Shown here: positions 2,986 through 48,887 of the stretch, one piece after another
How positions within the stretch are numbered: position 1 is the stretch's first letter
Layout: each line of letters opens with the position of its first letter
Sequence record: OZ035790.1
Source of the DNA: Felixounavirus LF110P4
Reading direction: 5' to 3' (one strand)
DNA length: 64,000 nt
The notes under the pieces: model-generated
What the model was told of the DNA's origin: nothing
Databases searched by the model: none
The model's input: only the letters and a program-made list of their open reading frames with translations
Made by a program: the position numbers and the translations under genes

Positions 2986-3242
2986 TTTGTAAACCCTTTC
3001 TTAATGAACCAGTTGATGACACTCTTCACAACTTTACTACGATGGTAGATAAAATGTGGAGAGGGTTGGTATGAACCATAAGCCCAGAAAGCGATAATTT
3101 CATTACACCCTGTGCATCGGGTACTTTCTTCAGCAATATGACCGTTGACTATTTCACTTACCTCACCTTGTAAGTCTGTACACCCACAATGTGGGCATCG
3201 GATAGGTGTTCCATCAGACTCATAGCAGTGTTCAATTTTCAT
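2982..3242 (-). CDS. zinc-ribbon protein
   Basis: CPHCGC ... CTGC paired Cys motifs; start overlaps frd stop. Confidence 0.45.
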   Translation of the reverse strand: MKIEHCYESDGTPIRCPHCGCTDLQGEVSEIVNGHIAEESTRCTGCNEIIAFWAYGSYQPSPHFIYHRSKVVKSVINWFIKKGFTK

Positions 3243-3758
3243 TTACTTAACCTCAAAAACTGGCTCAAGAACCAATATAAAGTCTACACAGTCATCTTCT
3301 TCATCCAGAATACCATCAAAGTTCTTAGGAACGAAGTCGAAGAGGCTCATCACAAAGCAGTCAGAAGTGACCTTGATAGTTCCTCCCATGTTCTCTACAG
3401 TTAACACTGTACGACTTTCTTTTACCTCCCTCAGAAGATTACCCACAAAGTCATCTAAGAAGTACTTCATCAGTGACTTAAAACCTTTAGGATAATCTGT
3501 ACCAGAGTATGTTTCAATCTGAGGCACAAGCTTAACATTTATACTAGTCTTTGTTAAGAACGTGTTAGAGAACATACTATCAGGTAGTTTGCAAACAATC
3601 TTTCCAGTACCTTCATGTTCAATCTCAACAAAACCAGCTTCGTCGCCACATGTAACTATTTTAAAAGATGCTTCATTCTCATACTGTGAAGCCATAAACT
3701 TTTTAAGCATCTCTTTAAGGAAATCTGCATGAGCATCTTGTAAGTAGATATCAATCAT
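3243..3758 (-). CDS. hypothetical protein
   Basis: 171 aa ORF in minus-strand operon; no recognisable motif. Confidence 0.45.
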   Translation of the reverse strand: MIDIYLQDAHADFLKEMLKKFMASQYENEASFKIVTCGDEAGFVEIEHEGTGKIVCKLPDSMFSNTFLTKTSINVKLVPQIETYSGTDYPKGFKSLMKYFLDDFVGNLLREVKESRTVLTVENMGGTIKVTSDCFVMSLFDFVPKNFDGILDEEDDCVDFILVLEPVFEVK

Positions 3759-43337: not shown

Positions 43338-44123
43338 ATGGGTATTGTAAAAATCATCAAAGGTGATATCTTTGACGCATTTGATAAAGGCAAATTTGAT
43401 ATCATTGGTCATGGTTGCAACTGTATGAATTTCATGGGTGCAGGTATTGCAGCAACTATTTCTAAGCATTATCCAAAAGTGTATGATACTGACACAGAAG
43501 TTTACCTGTTTGCAGGTGGCATTCGTCACAAACCCTGTGAAAATTTACTAGGTAATTTCTCTGTAGCACGTTTAAAACAAGGCCGTATAGCTAACCTTTA
43601 CACCCAACTTCATACTGGTAAAGATGCCCGATACAGTGCTTTAGAGTCATCTTTGAAACAGCTTAACAGATACTGTGAAGTTAACCAGTTGAAGAAAGTT
43701 GGTCTACCTATGATTGGTGCAGGTATCGGTGGACTTGACCCTCAAGCTGTCACAGTTATCATTAATCAGGTGATGAAGAGTGTAGATGTTTATCTGTATG
43801 TCTATGAAGCAAAAATGTATAATGAGTTACACTCAGGTTGGAAAAACTACTGTGAACCAGAATACTTTGCAGGTGTAGTTGTGTTCACAGATAACGCAGT
43901 TACCCTCTTCAGACGAAGAAAAGGTAAGATACATCAAAGTAACCCTCCGGTTGAAAAGATGTCTCTAAGTAACGCTCTAGTTACCCACCTGTCGAAGAGC
44001 AATCACAGAATTGCAGTAACATTTGGCAGTGATGCAGATGCTTATATCTATGCAAGAACTGATGAGGATATTGAGTTAATCTTCTCTTCACCAGAACTTA
44101 CCTTCTTAGACGCAAAGAACTAA
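43338..44123 (+). CDS. macro-domain-like protein (putative ADP-ribose binding/hydrolase)
   Basis: N-terminal KGDIFDA ... DIIGHGCNCMNFMGAGIAATI resembles the macro-domain Gly-rich ligand-binding loops; C-terminal about 130 aa unassigned. Confidence 0.45.
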   Translation: MGIVKIIKGDIFDAFDKGKFDIIGHGCNCMNFMGAGIAATISKHYPKVYDTDTEVYLFAGGIRHKPCENLLGNFSVARLKQGRIANLYTQLHTGKDARYSALESSLKQLNRYCEVNQLKKVGLPMIGAGIGGLDPQAVTVIINQVMKSVDVYLYVYEAKMYNELHSGWKNYCEPEYFAGVVVFTDNAVTLFRRRKGKIHQSNPPVEKMSLSNALVTHLSKSNHRIAVTFGSDADAYIYARTDEDIELIFSSPELTFLDAKN

Positions 44124-44189
44124 GAAACTTCGTAGTATATTCACAATAGACTAAGCCTTTCTTATCTGGTAAATTTTTCAGGTAAGGAG

Positions 44190-44370
44190 GGCTTTTTCAT
44201 TTCAGATTTGTGCAGGTAGAGTTCTGTAGAGAAATCTATAGAGAAAATTTTGAACTCCAAAGAGAAAATTCATTTTCAAACTGTGCAGGTAATCTCCAAA
44301 GGGTTTTTTCATTTTCAAAACGTGCAGAGAAAAATCAGGTCGGGCAAGAAAAATCATTTTAGAATTGTGC
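44190..44370. repeat. four dispersed copies of a TTTCATTTTCAnnnTGTGCAGGTA-like motif
   Basis: Copies near 44191, 44265, 44303 and 44349 at roughly 40-75 bp spacing. Confidence 0.55.
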
Positions 44371-44410
44371 AGGTAGGTGGGGGTAGGTGGGGGTAGGTGG
44401 GGGTAGGTGG
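44371..44410 (+). repeat. tandem 10-bp G-rich repeat (GGGTAGGTGG x4), G-quadruplex-capable
   Basis: Four perfect or near-perfect tandem units giving successive GGGGG runs separated by TAGGT. Confidence 0.7.
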
Positions 44411-44572
44411 GACTGTCGCCATTTCTCACAAGGCTACCACATCTGAAAATAAAAGTCAACAGAAAAATTTGTAGCGGATTGAAAAATAATTCTTGATTGT
44501 AGTTCTGTTTTGTGGTAGTCGCGCGCACCCGTTTCATTACAATTTTTGCAAAAAATATTTTTAAAAATTTTC

Positions 44573-44601
44573 TTGACTCTTTGAACTGGGTTATCTAATA
44601 T
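44573..44601 (+). promoter_or_regulatory. sigma70-like promoter (TTGACT-17-TAATAT) with upstream A/T tract
   Basis: Near-consensus hexamers with 17 bp spacer, AT-rich UP-like element upstream, 50 bp before ORF 44654. Confidence 0.55.
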
Positions 44602-44653
44602 TTGCATCAGACGGGGCGACAAGCTCAACAACCTTAAACTAGGAGATTCAAAA

Positions 44654-45037
44654 ATGGCATATCGTGCACCTAAATTCATCAACAAAGACAACTTTCGCAA
44701 CGCACTGGAGAAGTCACTTGATGAAAATTTTAAAGGTAACATTATCGTTGTTCACGCATTCAATTTTAAGTATGATGTAAACGGGAATAGAATCAACCAT
44801 TACACGGCAACCATGTTAGATGGTACACTTTCAAGTGAAAAAGTCGTACTAAATGCACTGGCAGGACGTGGAAAGGTATTAGTAAGATGTGATAAGAGAC
44901 GTTATCAGGGCGGTGCATATGGTTATGATGATGCTGTTTACCATCTTGAAAATATGGGCTATCAAGTAGAAAAAGCTGGAGCATCACAAATCATCGGCAG
45001 TGATGGTTATGTAACTATCTTCAAAATTAACAAATAA
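44654..45037 (+). CDS. hypothetical protein
   Basis: 127 aa; preceded by conserved leader CCTTAAACTAGGAGATTCAAAAATG. Confidence 0.45.
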   Translation: MAYRAPKFINKDNFRNALEKSLDENFKGNIIVVHAFNFKYDVNGNRINHYTATMLDGTLSSEKVVLNALAGRGKVLVRCDKRRYQGGAYGYDDAVYHLENMGYQVEKAGASQIIGSDGYVTIFKINK

Positions 45038-45124
45038 AGTACTTTACAAGGGGCTTATAGTTCGATAAAGTAAGCCCCAGATAAAGAGCTTTACCACTCA
45101 ATCCTTAAACTAGGAGATTCAAAA

Positions 45125-45667
45125 ATGAAATGTTATCACGGTACTACTCAAGAAAATTTCCTCAACCTGATTAATAACGGTGATAAACCATCAGGCGCAT
45201 GGAATTGTTCGGATATGGACGGCAATTTTTACGTGTATCCAGAAAATAAAATCTATGGCGACGATGATGAAGAGATAACATCGGAGGGCATTCAGCAAGC
45301 TCTAGGGAACGCCACTATTACGGCGGCCTTCCAGATGAAAACCCAAAATATTGTTATCTTAGAACTCGATATTCCAGATGATGAGCTAAATGATGATTAT
45401 TCTTGTGATAATATGTCGAGTGTAGCAAGTTTTACAGAGTACTTTGATGTAAACTGGATTAAAAAGGTCTATACAACAGAGTTTAACGCTATGTATTCGC
45501 CTTTTTGTCTTCCTTCACTGGATAACCCAAATATGAACTATCTTGATGAGACATTAGAACTACTTGCTAAAAGTGTTCAACAGTCGGACAGTATTCAGGT
45601 TTTTTGTGACATCATAGATACACTGACAGGAAACATTGCAGAAGAGGATTTAAAGAGCTTTTTCTAA
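45125..45667 (+). CDS. hypothetical protein
   Basis: 180 aa acidic protein; same conserved leader/RBS upstream. Confidence 0.45.
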   Translation: MKCYHGTTQENFLNLINNGDKPSGAWNCSDMDGNFYVYPENKIYGDDDEEITSEGIQQALGNATITAAFQMKTQNIVILELDIPDDELNDDYSCDNMSSVASFTEYFDVNWIKKVYTTEFNAMYSPFCLPSLDNPNMNYLDETLELLAKSVQQSDSIQVFCDIIDTLTGNIAEEDLKSFF

Positions 45668-45699
45668 AAACCTATGCAATCACCTTATAGACACTAATC

Positions 45700-45719
45700 A
45701 GCCCCTTGTAGGGGCTTTT
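45700..45719 (+). terminator. rho-independent terminator
   Basis: AGCCCCttgtaGGGGCT hairpin followed by TTT. Confidence 0.5.
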
Positions 45720-45733
45720 AGAGGGCTTAAATC

Positions 45734-45967
45734 ATGCTTACAACCGTTTACCTCATCCTTTCTATTTGTAACGGTCATTCATGCGATTTTAAAGGGCTTG
45801 AAGAGTTTACAGGAAGTAAAGAAAATGCTATTCAAGTTTGCCAGATAGCAAGGAAAGACTATCCCGCTAGTGATGATATACAATGTTACTTTAAGACAGA
45901 AGATGACGACGGAATCTATTTTGACAGTGTTGACGGTAAATATGAAATTATCATTGAAAAAGACTAG
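45734..45967 (+). CDS. hypothetical protein
   Basis: 77 aa ORF. Confidence 0.4.
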   Translation: MLTTVYLILSICNGHSCDFKGLEEFTGSKENAIQVCQIARKDYPASDDIQCYFKTEDDDGIYFDSVDGKYEIIIEKD

Positions 45968-46056
45968 ACAAGCCCAATAAAAGTCTGTAAATTGTCAATC
46001 AACGGGGAGGGAATGACCTTCCCCACTAAATAAAGTCCTAAACTGGAGTTATCAAG

Positions 46057-46320
46057 ATGGAAAACGTAGAATTAACCACACTTTTACAAATTGCAACTGA
46101 CAAAGAAGATGTAGCACTGTTTCACCGTATCGAAAGCGATTTATTCAATGGTGAAATCATCAAAGAATCTTATGAAGTTGTCGGATTCAAAGATGGTAAA
46201 GCGTTTGGCTTTTTTGACCTCGACAAAGGCAACGCTGTCACAAAGTATGATGTTGTATCTTGTGAGATTCTTACAAAATACAACGAAAAAAGGCTTGCAA
46301 CATACGCCAACATACAGTAA
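46057..46320 (+). CDS. hypothetical protein
   Basis: 87 aa; variant of the conserved leader upstream. Confidence 0.4.
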   Translation: MENVELTTLLQIATDKEDVALFHRIESDLFNGEIIKESYEVVGFKDGKAFGFFDLDKGNAVTKYDVVSCEILTKYNEKRLATYANIQ

Positions 46321-46386
46321 ATTACTAATCAACGGGAGGCGATAACCTCCCCACTAAATAAAACCCTTAAACTAGGAGATTCAAAA

Positions 46387-46635
46387 ATGGCAACTATCCG
46401 CGCTACTGTCAATGCCTATGGCTGTTATACTCTGGACGTTAAATTTGATATTGGTGGAACTGATGAGTGTTTTTCATTAGTGAAGACAGTTATCAAACAA
46501 GTTATTCCAGATTATAACCCTACTGATGACTTCTGGAAAGATGCTGTAAAAGAGGCATTAAACGACGAGCATCACTATCATTACTGGGGTGACTTGATTG
46601 TTTCCCTGTACTACAATAAACAAGGTTACAACTAA
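46387..46635 (+). CDS. hypothetical protein
   Basis: 82 aa; conserved leader CCCTTAAACTAGGAGATTCAAAAATG upstream. Confidence 0.4.
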   Translation: MATIRATVNAYGCYTLDVKFDIGGTDECFSLVKTVIKQVIPDYNPTDDFWKDAVKEALNDEHHYHYWGDLIVSLYYNKQGYN

Positions 46636-46673
46636 TCGACGCAACGGGGCTAAATAGCCCCAGATACCTCAAC

Positions 46674-46699
46674 AGCCCCTATTTAAAGGGGCTTTTTTA
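46674..46699 (+). terminator. rho-independent terminator
   Basis: AGCCCCTatttaaaGGGGCT hairpin followed by TTTTTT at end of plus-strand block. Confidence 0.6.
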
Positions 46700-48290
46700 C
46701 GTCTATTGAATCCTTATACAATCCCTTTCCAGAATCTTATCAGACCTTAAAAGCAATAACTCTATAGTCTACTCTATAACCTCTTATCAAATCAACTTAA
46801 ATAAAAGCCAATAACCCCCAGAAAGGGGATGGCCCATTTAAACGCTCTATAAAGCTCTATAACAGCCTTATCAACCTAACTTAAGGGATTGCATTAATCA
46901 ACCTTAAAAAGCTCTTTACAGGGCTTTATAGAGGCTTAAAAGAATCTTATAAGGGTGTAAGCTTATAGGCTGGTTAGTATCTTGTGAATGGTTAAACAAC
47001 CCCCTTGCTAGTCACTAAAAAGCATGTTATAGGGGCTATAAAGTTACTTCAAAGTTACGTAAAAGAGGCTATAAAGTTACGTAAATGCTAGCCCCCTTAA
47101 CATTTTCTTAACATTTTCTTAACAATTTCTTAACAAACCCTACATAGTTATGCTTGTTAGCAACTTGTTAGCACCTTGTTAAATCTCTGTTAAGACCACG
47201 TAAAAGCCTTGTAAGAGTCTTTGACATAGCCTTAAAAGCTCCTGTAAAGCCCTATAAAGAGCTATCTGTACAGTTGGGGGTAGATACTAGGGAGAGCCTT
47301 AAAAGAGCCTATAAAGAGCTATAGAGAGCTTTTAAGAGGTATGTTTAATAGTTCACTAAGAAAGGAAAGGGAACGGTAAGAAAAGAGATAGTGACCATGT
47401 TAATAGCTTGTTAAAAAGATTAAACACTTGTTAGAGGCTTGTTAATTATCTTAACAAAATAACTCTTTAAAATTAACTTGTTAGCTCTTGTTAGTCATCT
47501 GTTAAGATTCTGTAAAGCCTATTCAGCACTTGTTAGAAATCTGTTACAGCCTTGTTAGTTCTGTTAAGAATCTGTTAAGACCTTTGAAGAGTTGTTAAGA
47601 GCTTGAGAGAGTTGTTAAGAAATTGTTAAGGATATTTTAAAATTTTGCAAAGTACTTGTAAGGGAGCTGTTAAGGGCTACCAAGCAGATATACATCCTAA
47701 TCAGATATTTTTGAGTTCCTTCAAAGACCCTAAAAAATGACTTGATAGTCCTATTTTATAAAAATTTTAAGATTCTGAATAATTACCTATACAGTCTTTT
47801 AAAAATACAGGTAATAACAGGCTTAGAAGATACCTTGTTAGTACCGTGTTAGACCTTGTGAGATAAGGTCTGTAAAGATATTCCTGTTAAGTTTGTTAAA
47901 ACAGTCTATATAGAGGCTTAGTAATACCTAGTGAACACCTATAGAGGGTATCATAGCTGACATAGAGATTAAGAGGTGTATAGGAGCTTCTAAGAGGGTG
48001 TAGAGAGATGGTTAAGGTGATTGTATAGGCTGTTAAGAAGGCTTGTTAGAGGGCTAGTTAGAAGGGTTATACAGAGGGCTATTAAGACCACTAGATAGTT
48101 ACTAAGATACTATATAGTACTATATAACTATATAGAGAGTAAGATTAAGAAGGTTGTTAAGAAGGGTAGATATTTTGTTCACATATAATGGTGACCCAGA
48201 GGTTGGGACAACCGATAAAATTTTATAAAAAATATAAATTTCGTAAATTTTACTCAATAAAAAGCCCCCAATTAAGGAGGCTCTTAAGAT
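46700..48290. repeat. ORF-free iteron-rich region (about 1.6 kb)
   Basis: No ORF of 60 aa or more on either strand; more than 25 copies of TTGTTAG / CTGTTAAG-type motifs (dense 47100-47640), CTATAAAG(A)GCT and TATATAG repeats. Confidence 0.7.
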
Positions 48291-48293
48291 ATT

Positions 48294-48887
48294 TTAAATC
48301 AGTGTTTCCAGAACTGTTTTTAGGGATGACTTAGTTGTCTGATAAAAATGAGTAAATCCATTGTTGTTATCGAATATCTGCATCATGATATCATCTCCCT
48401 TGATTGGGTACACTCGGATATCATAGTGAAACCCATTAAAGACAGCAGAACCATTGCAGAATACACTAAAATCATCCACTGAGATATACTCTTCATGTCC
48501 TGTGATTTTTATACAGATACCTTTGCTCGGTCTCTTAGGGTTGATATCTTCCATCACAGACATATTCTGCCCACCAAGAGATACCATAGTGACCACTTTA
48601 CGGTTCTTCTGTTTGAAGTACATCTTAACTTTCTGTAAAGTGTCTTCATAGAACGGATAAGACCTTTCTACAAAGATTCCTTCAAGTGGCTCTTTACCAT
48701 TTTCAACTTCTCTGTTATGCCGTACTGCAAAGATAATTTGTTCGAACCAGTCAAGATTTTCTTCGGAGAGTGCTTCTCGAACATCACTCCAGTCAAGTAC
48801 TAGGTAGTTACCTTCAACTTCTTTTAAGTTATCTTTTTCCATAGCTATCACACCATTATCGTAAAACTTGGTAGGCTGGTACTGCAA
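48294..48887 (-). CDS. hypothetical protein
   Basis: 197 aa, last gene of minus-strand block. Confidence 0.45.
   Translation of the reverse strand: MQYQPTKFYDNGVIAMEKDNLKEVEGNYLVLDWSDVREALSEENLDWFEQIIFAVRHNREVENGKEPLEGIFVERSYPFYEDTLQKVKMYFKQKNRKVVTMVSLGGQNMSVMEDINPKRPSKGICIKITGHEEYISVDDFSVFCNGSAVFNGFHYDIRVYPIKGDDIMMQIFDNNNGFTHFYQTTKSSLKTVLETLI

Follow-up and report, generated by a model that had tools for sequence, protein, structure and literature searches.

Putative promoter-hairpin linkers separate the small accessory genes of a variable array near the genome end of a Felixounavirus

The window analysed here is a stretch of 64,000 nucleotides (nt) from Felixounavirus LF110P4 (sequence record OZ035790.1), and five co-oriented small open reading frames (ORFs), A to E, occupy its positions 44654-46635. 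We put at about 65% the probability that these ORFs form an accessory-gene array of an Ounavirinae phage that is built like those regions of T4-like phages which contain promoter-early stem-loops (PeSLs; Arbiol et al. 2010, PMC2839356; Comeau et al. 2014, PMC4122927), with promoter-hairpin linkers between the genes and with recombination between the linkers. The array locus extends from a macro-domain gene to the terminal repeat and lies near the genome end. When positions 44300-47100 were searched by megablast, 255 phage records were matched, nearly all of them Felixounavirus-type genomes of Escherichia, Salmonella, Shigella or Citrobacter, and the window phage can be classed as a Felix O1-like myovirus of the genus Felixounavirus. 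All features described below lie on the + strand and are given in window coordinates.

The five ORFs are A (44654-45037, 127 amino acids (aa), phrog_4495), B (45125-45667, 180 aa, phrog_3303), C (45734-45967, 77 aa, phrog_4640), D (46057-46320, 87 aa, phrog_7022) and E (46387-46635, 82 aa, phrog_4559). All five have matches in PHROG families of unknown function (E-values between 1e-46 and 1e-90). Substitutions relative to homologous loci are in excess at third codon positions (80/47/256 at positions 1/2/3 in A, 41/5/183 in C, 33/6/178 in D). On both grounds we regard the five as real genes under purifying selection, in agreement with an earlier sequence-only reading of this DNA that had listed five small genes. 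Homologues of A are confined to Felixounavirus-like phages, D is missing from some relatives, and E, the last gene of the array and the counterpart of Felix O1 gene 23 (Felix01p049), was kept in every relative examined. Pfam, NCBIfam and PDB sequence searches of A-E gave no informative match, and none of the five has a known structural function. Structure searches were informative for B, the model of which points to an ADP-ribosyltransferase (ART)-like fold; the AlphaFold2 model of A (pLDDT, predicted local distance difference test, 51.7) was too poor for a fold search.

The spacers between the genes were compared at 12 loci spanning the interval from the macro-domain gene to E. Two types were distinguished, Type 1 with 52 and Type 2 with 64 copies (63 distinct sequences); every linker runs from stop codon to ATG and carries (A)GGAG 8-9 nt before the ATG. 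Type 1 linkers (~87 nt) have the layout TAAAGTACTTTACA-A-GGGGCTTA-(loop)-TAAGCCCC-AGATAAAGAGCTTTACCACTMAATCC(T)TAAACT(A)GGAGATTCAAAAATG. Type 2 linkers (core ~66 nt) consist of a -35 hexamer, 17 nt, TAAATT-ACnnATCAAC-GGGGAGG-loop-CCTTCCCC-ACTAAATAAAGTCC and a leader. Searched against GenBank phages, a Type 1 query was found at 1,375 places in 287 records, 29 Erwinia phages among them, and a Type 2 query at 1,058 places in 245 records, typically with 4-6 copies of each type per genome. The same two families recur all along the array and are shared by three genera. Whichard et al. (2010) had listed two direct repeats in Felix O1 without interpreting them, one of 57 bp, which is a piece of Type 1, and one of 39 bp, which is a piece of Type 2.

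Conserved hexamers around a freely varying spacer are the reason why the linkers are read as promoters. In Type 1, TTTACA is present in 52/52 copies and is followed, at exactly 17 nt, by a -10 element whose first T, second A and sixth T are each found in 51/52 copies. Positions 3-5 of the element vary freely (TAAAGT, TATCTT, TACCTT, TAAGAT and others). The first two of these bases (T33 and A34) lie in an unpaired loop and are invariant across three genera while other loop positions drift, and the unpaired CA of TTTACA is equally invariant. All 17 additional Type 1 copies from Kolesnikvirus and Mooglevirus retain TTTACA-17/18-TAnnnT. The Type 2 -10 hexamer is TAAATT in 54 of 58 copies, with a -35 hexamer at 17-nt spacing in 56 of 58; TTGCAA (18 of the 58), TTGACA (13), TAGACA (10), TTGACG (10) and TTGATT (5) serve as this hexamer and occur in unrelated upstream contexts, in some cases within the preceding ORF. 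These conservation patterns argue for sigma70-like promoters in the linkers. In the window, promoters are predicted at 44573-44601 for A, at 45043-45071 for B and presumably C, at 45965-45993 for D and at 46295-46323 for E.

Transcription of the array genes of Felix O1 has been followed by reverse-transcription PCR (PMC3185647), where they appear at 5-25 min and none is late, and where neighbours differ in timing. The data are crude and are compatible with independent early or middle promoters; gene numbers were assigned to families by way of the coordinates and repeat positions in that paper. Timing shows no clear relation to linker type in this dataset, as genes preceded by Type 1 peak at 5 or 25 min and those preceded by Type 2 do likewise.

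The hairpins of the linkers are conserved as well. The Type 1 RNA is predicted to fold into a lower stem of 6 bp, a middle stem of 5 bp, a 3x3 internal loop and a top stem of 9 bp; the GGGGCTTA/TAAGCCCC stem fills the promoter spacer, and the -10 element lies in the loop and the 3' arm. Covariation was analysed in an alignment of 34 sequences from three genera. Pairing is retained in 96.4% of alignment cells, as against 53-56% when the 3' partner is slid by one column, and the covariation score of 0.159 (0.072 in shuffles) was reached by 0/500 shuffles. Pair 19:43 is G-C in Felixounavirus and Mooglevirus and U-A in 6/6 Kolesnikvirus copies, pair 25:37 shows four pair types, and pair 21:41 is U-G in 17 sequences and C-G in 16. 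In the f15>f7 variant (f-numbers denote gene families of the array in relatives) the lower stem is rebuilt. The tolerance of G.U pairs suggests that selection on the Type 1 hairpin acts on RNA. Type 2 hairpins are shorter (6-8 bp, folding free energy (dG) typically -10 to -16 kcal/mol) and start ~7-10 nt past the -10 hexamer, so that they would form the extreme 5' end of a transcript started at their promoter; a 5'-terminal stem-loop is a known stabiliser of mRNA in E. coli. Either linker hairpin could attenuate read-through RNA or protect its 3' end. For a PeSL of T4-like phages, a stem-loop that cut read-through as strongly as rrnB T1 has been reported (Arbiol et al. 2010, PMC2839356). An Rfam search at E<=1 over 44100-48300 gave one chance-level match, at the terminator upstream of the array, and none on the linkers.

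Gene content differs widely between relatives. Across the 12 loci a mosaic was seen that reads macro-domain gene (MAC), a gap of ~510 nt, (f16 f14), A, f6, (f15), f7/f8, (f17), f9, f10, f13, (f18), B, C, (f19 or f20), f3, f5, (D), E, where the genes in parentheses are present or absent gene by gene. The array holds between five genes, in the window, which is the smallest seen, and ~19 in Citrobacter phage Michonne. Felix O1 itself carries f14-f15-f7-f8-f9-f10-f3-f5-E and is without A, B, C and D, so that it has only E in common with the window. Erwinia and Hafnia Kolesnikviruses have at least 14 annotated genes in the same layout. The sequence-only reading had described an accessory cassette, and this holds: the array varies in content and is neither invariant nor syntenic among its relatives.

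All presence/absence polymorphisms are bounded by linkers, including those of f15, f17, f18, f16-f14, f19/f20, D, f13, f5 and A. Two spacers of the window are chimeric. That between A and B starts, at its 5' side, as the usual A>f6 linker and ends, at its 3' side, as the f13/f18>B linker; that between C and D likewise starts as C>f3 and ends as f5>D. When the window was compared with every relative by blastn, the left and right blocks of homology overlapped by ~96 nt at 45032-45127 (Type 1) and at 45953-46048 (Type 2), the signature of an exchange between direct repeats. A contiguous A|B junction is present in 0/218 matching GenBank records, a contiguous C|D junction in 2/209 (KhF3 and LF82P2). 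The nearest relatives also differ by block: A and B-C are 97.8% identical to an IMG/VR contig (L004), D-E 98.0% to another relative (L006). The array is variable, and its recombination junctions lie inside the linkers.

In the reading that we prefer, the array would be a hyperplastic accessory region bounded by the macro-domain gene and the terminal repeat; each gene, or B and C as a pair, would be a plug-in expression unit behind one of two reusable linkers. Host sigma70 RNA polymerase would initiate at each linker early in infection. Hairpins in read-through RNA would attenuate or insulate and would stabilise the upstream message, the Type 2 hairpin serving in addition as a protective 5' stem-loop of the new message, and the common leader would lead to uniform, strong translation. 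The comparison with relatives indicates that homologous recombination between any pair of linkers, which are direct repeats of nearly the same sequence, deletes, inserts or swaps whole genes and leaves the expression signals intact. Compared with nearly all of its relatives, the window phage would then be a minimal derivative that has lost the f6..f13/f18 block (Type 1 x Type 1 exchange) and the f3-f5 block (Type 2 x Type 2 exchange). We infer that linker-mediated exchange is a selected mode of gene turnover. The payload would be small non-structural proteins made early or in mid-infection, most likely with roles in host takeover or counter-defence.

Several observations weigh against this reading. 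A generic promoter scan of the region found 17 sites, with 12.8 +/- 4.0 expected in shuffles; as this is no enrichment, the scan was not used as evidence by itself. Part of the Type 1 TTTACA and the sixth T of its -10 element lie in stems, and their conservation could be partly structural. C has no linker of its own, and most hairpins lack a U-tract, so that a part in termination or insulation is tentative. A literature search found no Felix O1 transcriptome, and no transcript 5' ends, reporter data or RNA-seq on Ounavirinae linkers. Similarity between linkers may persist through selection for expression, in which case recombination would be a by-product and not a function, and the direction of events (deletion in the window as opposed to insertions elsewhere) is deduced from the majority state.

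Details of the window fit the general description of the linkers. The Type 1 linker between A and B (45035-45127) contains a three-tier hairpin of ~20 bp (45035-45093, dG -25.1 kcal/mol) in which the predicted promoter TTTACA-17-TAAAGT (45043-45071) is embedded. The Type 2 linker between C and D (45965-46059) is composed of TAGACA-17-TAAATT (45965-45993), the hairpin GGGGAGGG/CCTTCCCC (46004-46024) and a variant leader (46037-46059). That between D and E (46295-46389) is composed of TTGCAA-17-TAAATT (46295-46323), the hairpin GGGAGG/CCTCCC (46334-46351) and a standard leader (46365-46389); its -35 hexamer lies inside ORF D and its -10 hexamer overlaps the D stop codon. Two copies of the hairpin module AATCAACGGG..CCCCACTAAATAAA are present, one ahead of D (45997-46034) and one ahead of E (46327-46362), with 0 expected by chance; the recurrence of this module had been seen from the sequence at 45988 and 46325, a few bases away. 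Between B and C, the spacer has neither a promoter-like element nor a standard leader. It holds a hairpin (45700-45719, AGCCCCT-TGT-AGGGGCT followed by UUUU) that resembles a terminator or attenuator and is annotated as a potential terminator in phage Barry, and it is conserved in all loci that carry B.

The 25-nt leader CCTTAAACTAGGAGATTCAAAAATG is present in three exact copies, ahead of A (44632-44656), B (45103-45127, the end of the A>B linker) and E (46365-46389), and comprises the Shine-Dalgarno (SD) sequence AGGAG, an 8-nt spacer and the ATG. None was expected by chance (mean 0.00 in 100 shuffles), and no further copy with up to 3 mismatches was found in the whole 64 kb. The near-identical leaders before 44654, 45125 and 46387 that the sequence-only reading had pointed out are therefore real. 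Of the two further variants that it had proposed, the one ahead of D (CCTAAACTGGAGTTATCAAGATG, 46037-46059) is a true variant; the candidate ahead of C at 45734 (AGAGGGCTTAAATCATG) was rejected, having only CTTAAA in common with the leader. A short stem within the leader (44632-44645, 45103-45116 and 46365-46378, and in the L018-L020 spacers) would occlude the SD sequence. It covaries between genera, as CCT..AGG (CCTTAAACTAGGAG), CC..GG (CCTAAACTGGAG) and, in Kolesnikvirus, CCTT..AAGG (CCCTTATAAAGGAA). With 2-4 bp the stem is weak, and it may be due to chance or be an element that tunes translation.

At the entry of the array, an A/T-rich tract precedes the promoter-like site TTGACT-17-TAATAT (44541-44601 in all, hexamers at 44573-44578 and 44596-44601). 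TTGACT...TA(A/G)TAT is conserved in all relatives that cover this point, in support of the promoter already suspected at 44573. At the other end, a first hairpin after E (46646-46661, GGGGCTA-AA-TAGCCCC) is followed by a strong intrinsic terminator (46674-46699, AGCCCCT-ATTTAA-AGGGGCT with UUUUUU) that corresponds to Felix O1 t23; the dG of the region is -27.2. The first hairpin with its surroundings (46640-46665, CAACGGGGCTAAATAGCCCCAGATA) has the 5' flank of a Type 2 and the 3' flank of a Type 1 linker and resembles the decayed remnant of a hybrid linker where the array ends.

A hairpin follows every ORF, and folding of the spacers is stronger than in shuffled sequences after A (z -4.45), C (-2.35), D (-3.26) and E (-4.49), unlike the B>C spacer (-0.84). 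A U-tract follows the hairpin directly only after E (6 U) and, weakly, after B (4 U), whereas the hairpins after A, C and D run into AGAUAAAG or ACUAAAUAAA and are part of the linker of the next gene. The claim that each gene has its own hairpin thus stands, but individual terminators were an overstatement, because three of these hairpins belong to the following gene.

The array shares several traits with PeSLs. A PeSL reaches from stop codon to ATG and contains an A/T-rich tract, a sigma70-like promoter (consensus in T4/PST-type elements TTTACW-N17-TAYWAT, PMC4122927), a GGGG..CCCC stem-loop that sits between the promoter boxes or overlaps the one at -10, and a 3' SD sequence; PeSLs cluster among ORFans in hyperplastic regions, and the crossovers of indels fall inside them. 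Likewise, the linkers described here are intergenic among small, variable, co-oriented ORFs, have, at the sequence level, -35 and -10 hexamers at ~17 nt with an A/T-rich tract upstream and a 3' SD sequence with start codon, and contain the crossovers of indels and replacements; in Type 1 a G-rich stem-loop lies in the promoter spacer and overlaps the -10 element. Unlike in PeSLs, Type 2 has its hairpin downstream of the -10 hexamer, in the 5' untranslated region, there are two discrete linker classes, the three-tier ~20-bp hairpin of Type 1 encloses the whole promoter, and the SD leader is near-identical (25 nt exact). The phages differ too, as Ounavirinae have genomes of ~86 kb, have no known T4-type middle/late programme and are not Straboviridae. 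For T4-like PeSLs a stem-loop effect has been measured and mini-circles are known; in the present array, promoter and terminator activity is predicted from sequence and mini-circles are hypothetical. Our literature search found no description of PeSLs that covers Felix O1-like phages or Ounavirinae. We suggest that the array works like a PeSL region with a separate lineage of elements, the likeness being one of anatomy.

Protein B is the one of the five proteins for which a biochemical role can be proposed. Its N-terminus is MKCYHGTT, and its AlphaFold model, built from a 28-sequence alignment, has a pLDDT of 82.9 and a predicted template-modelling (TM) score (pTM) of 0.79. The top 27 Foldseek matches of the model are all ART toxins, at weak scores (E 0.05-0.5, TM 0.33-0.40), and the named fold matches in BFVD are DarT, RNA 2'-phosphotransferase, a PARP domain and rifampin ART. 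According to this model, B has an ART-like fold with a split beta-sheet core. At the sequence level B has no Pfam or NCBIfam match, and PDB profile searches with a narrow (A2) and a broad (A4) alignment came back empty; sub-threshold PARP (PF00644) matches were seen at the N-terminus of 4/10 distant relatives (best E 6.2e-4). A full profile scan placed 407 clusters at 50% identity in the family, all stand-alone proteins of ~175-200 aa. By tblastn, B was found in 374 phage records, from enteric Ounavirinae and from 79 Pseudomonas, 28 Erwinia, 23 Vibrio and 5 Pectobacterium phages, so that the family spreads over Ounavirinae and Pakpunavirus-like phages of Pseudomonas, and over Vibrio and Pectobacterium phages.

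The signature of the family comprises H5 (65/66) in an H-G-T context, W26 (66/66), S29, Y36 (66/66) and D91 (66/66)-x-S93 (66/66)-C-x-N-M. H5 and Y36 fit an H-Y-E triad. There is no conserved Glu, E80 having been rejected as the catalytic residue with conservation in just 35/66, and the invariant D91 is a candidate for the third position; the signature may thus fit an H-Y-D rather than an H-Y-E arrangement. We compared B with the H-Y-[EDQ] side of the ART superfamily (Tpt1/KptA, Arr, DarT, PARPs) and with the phage ARTs T4 Alt, ModA and ModB and AcrIF11. B differs from these families in having no sequence-level match in Pfam, NCBIfam or PDB profiles, in a third catalytic position that is not a conserved Glu, with the invariant D-x-S-C-x-N-M loop motif and Trp26 instead, and in a constant 77-aa partner. 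A literature search for descriptions of ARTs in Felixounavirus found none.

The partner is C. It occurs in 231 phage records, all of enteric Ounavirinae and essentially the same set as the carriers of B in this group. C lies directly 3' of B wherever this was checked, across the fixed spacer with its hairpin, UUUU and lack of a promoter, and B and C are jointly missing from Felix O1. A functional pair, of enzyme and regulator or of enzyme and antidote, is plausible. B is probably an NAD+-using enzyme of the ART type that acts with, or is controlled by, C; its catalytic activity is suggested by the modelled fold, which fits host-takeover or anti-defence roles.

The main rival to the modular reading is an early operon of the T7 kind, in which the promoter at 44573 would give rise to one polycistronic RNA ending at the 46674 terminator. 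The hairpins would be sites of processing or stability, for instance RNase III sites in the case of the ~20-bp irregular Type 1, and the hexamers would be conserved through constraint on the RNA. The early region of T7 has strong host-type promoters, RNase III sites between genes 0.3-1.3 and the terminator TE, and the Type 1 hairpin may resemble the T7 R-sites. Position at a genome end, a strong sigma70 promoter, small genes, irregular hairpins without U-tracts and a single strong terminator are common to both regions, and T7 carries small host-takeover and anti-defence genes there. The rival accounts for an array that opens with one consensus-like promoter and closes with one strong terminator, for three hairpins that no U-tract follows, and for a ~20-bp Type 1 hairpin with a 3x3 internal loop in which tolerated G.U pairs (21:41) and compensatory changes speak for selection on RNA. 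Structure does not explain the invariant unpaired T/A at 17 nt from TTTACA nor the unpaired CA, however, and the Type 2 -35/-10 geometry is conserved upstream of and outside the hairpin in five contexts. Neighbouring array genes of Felix O1 also peak at different times. In addition, T7 R-sites are neither promoters nor near-identical repeats, and the early-gene content of T7 is comparatively stable. We consider a T7-like operon unlikely as the full explanation; it may partly coexist with the modular arrangement, the hairpins acting on read-through RNA too.

A more far-reaching version of the modular reading, which we hold to be rather doubtful, would make the linkers an active exchange system. 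PeSL-like circles, with factors assisting at the hairpin or at the half-palindrome AAAGNNCTTT, would move genes for counter-defence and takeover, and B-C would be a new ADP-ribosylation module. It would be just as speculative to say that B-C, as an H-Y-D transferase with a 77-aa partner, acts early on a target in the host or its immunity, which it would modify, and that the DarG-like macro-domain protein encoded upstream of the array perhaps interacts with this activity.

The sequence-only reading had called the layout moron-like and the genes independently acquired. Morons reportedly occur in lambdoid and other temperate phages as single, non-essential, variably present accessory genes with their own expression signals (Hendrix et al. 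2000); no conserved linkers flank them, their arrival is attributed to illegitimate recombination, and they are expressed from the prophage and often sit in late operons. Accretion of this kind, with each gene brought in from outside along with its promoter and terminator and with a secondary similarity of the flanks, would agree with gene-by-gene presence and absence, small ORFans and own expression signals. The flanks are instead two linker families shared across three genera, the junctions fall in linkers with ~96 nt of overlapping homology and show no illegitimate joints, and the array is a co-oriented early or middle region of a virulent phage, not a set of inserts in temperate late operons. 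We judge accretion to be very improbable. The authors who defined PeSLs set them apart from morons, whose signals are not a vehicle of mobility and whose flanks are not conserved (Arbiol et al. 2010, PMC2839356), and the label is for this reason only partly right; independent acquisition does not agree with the sharing of the same two linker families and with indel junctions inside them.

Least probable of all is that the palindromic linkers are DNA sites, either for a regulator (early shut-off) or for a structure-specific recombinase in the manner of integron attC sites and cassette circles. Such sites would be in keeping with the bulged, imperfect inverted repeats of Type 1, with the PeSL mini-circles of T4-like phages, with AAAGAGCT-type motifs that fill the 1.6-kb terminal non-coding region and with the AAAGNNCTTT half-palindromes that flank the Type 1 hairpin. 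In the window, 11 copies of AAAGNNCTTT were counted (3.6 +/- 1.7 expected; 0/100 shuffles reach 11), at 45036, 45083, 45652 and 46908 among other sites, two copies flanking the hairpin and the sites being scattered across the window. G.U-type wobbles favour RNA over DNA structure, though, and homology-driven recombination suffices for the junctions. An integron gene cassette array was given low weight, as the annotations of six relatives show no integrase or recombinase close to the array (recombinases were not sought across the whole genome) and no attC core GTTRRRY is visible in the linkers.

Felix O1-like phages are widely used in typing, biocontrol and therapy of Salmonella and E. coli, and small 'hypothetical' genes are the main difference between isolates. 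Plug-and-play exchange of the PeSL kind, if true, would explain how the isolates diversify, and it would predict spontaneous deletions between any two linker copies in production stocks. The linkers would be natural landing pads for engineering, with ready-made expression signals. Modular shuffling by promoter-hairpin elements would also extend beyond T4-like phages, which would suggest convergent or ancient use. B, an ART-like protein previously unannotated, and C are concrete, testable candidates for a new phage effector of ADP-ribosylation, at a time when it is becoming apparent that phages and hosts contend to a large extent through this modification and through its removal (DarTG, macrodomains, NADAR).

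Upstream of the array, a macro-domain protein is encoded at 43338-44123 (Pfam Macro, 8e-7), with its own terminator, equivalent to Felix O1 t13. Its best NCBIfam match is the DarG antitoxin macrodomain (NF048014, E 1.6e-14, below the curated cut-off), and the gene sits immediately 5' of the array, at a distance of two ORFs from that of the ART-like protein B. It could be an orphan antitoxin-like counter-defence against DarTG2, comparable to phage NADAR and DarG-like factors (PMC11825919, PMC13309987). Between this gene and the array promoter, a tandem G-rich decamer (GGTGGGGGTA) is repeated 3-4 times (44367-44416) in a G-quadruplex-like arrangement; relatives have 0-1 units, so the expansion is specific to the window. 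The intervals 44255-44372 and 44430-44570 hold three copies of a ~34-nt repeat (CTCCAAAG..TTCATTTTCAAA.GTGCAG) and a ~140-bp non-coding stretch, directly 5' of the 44573 promoter, that is nearly invariant among relatives. The repeats and the invariant stretch could be a regulatory region or a small RNA.

Downstream, ~1.6 kb of non-coding DNA (46700-48290) separates the E terminator, where the + strand block ends, from the start of a - strand block. This region is dense in short direct and inverted repeats with a period of ~10-11 bp (CTTGTTAAGA and CTATAAAGAGCT types), and its AAAGAGCT motif is found in Type 1 linkers too. Phage Pr103Blw has an annotated direct terminal repeat of 581 bp, which aligns with 47107-47681 at 94% identity, so that the physical genome ends probably lie within 46700-48290. 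As the E terminator is followed by this non-coding terminal-repeat region, the cassette would be the final transcription unit ahead of the genome's physical right end.

Some database records deserve a remark. In L003 (MW481326), array genes of 98 and 67 aa at 1520-1816 and 3096-3299 bear the implausible labels 'tail sheath monomer' and 'prohead assembly scaffold protein', and the IMG/VR contig L004 starts with a Nextera adapter (GTGTATAAGAGACAG). 'Staphylococcus phage SA1' (GenBank GU169904) and one 'Campylobacter' record contain Felixounavirus array sequence and are probably chimeric or mislabelled.

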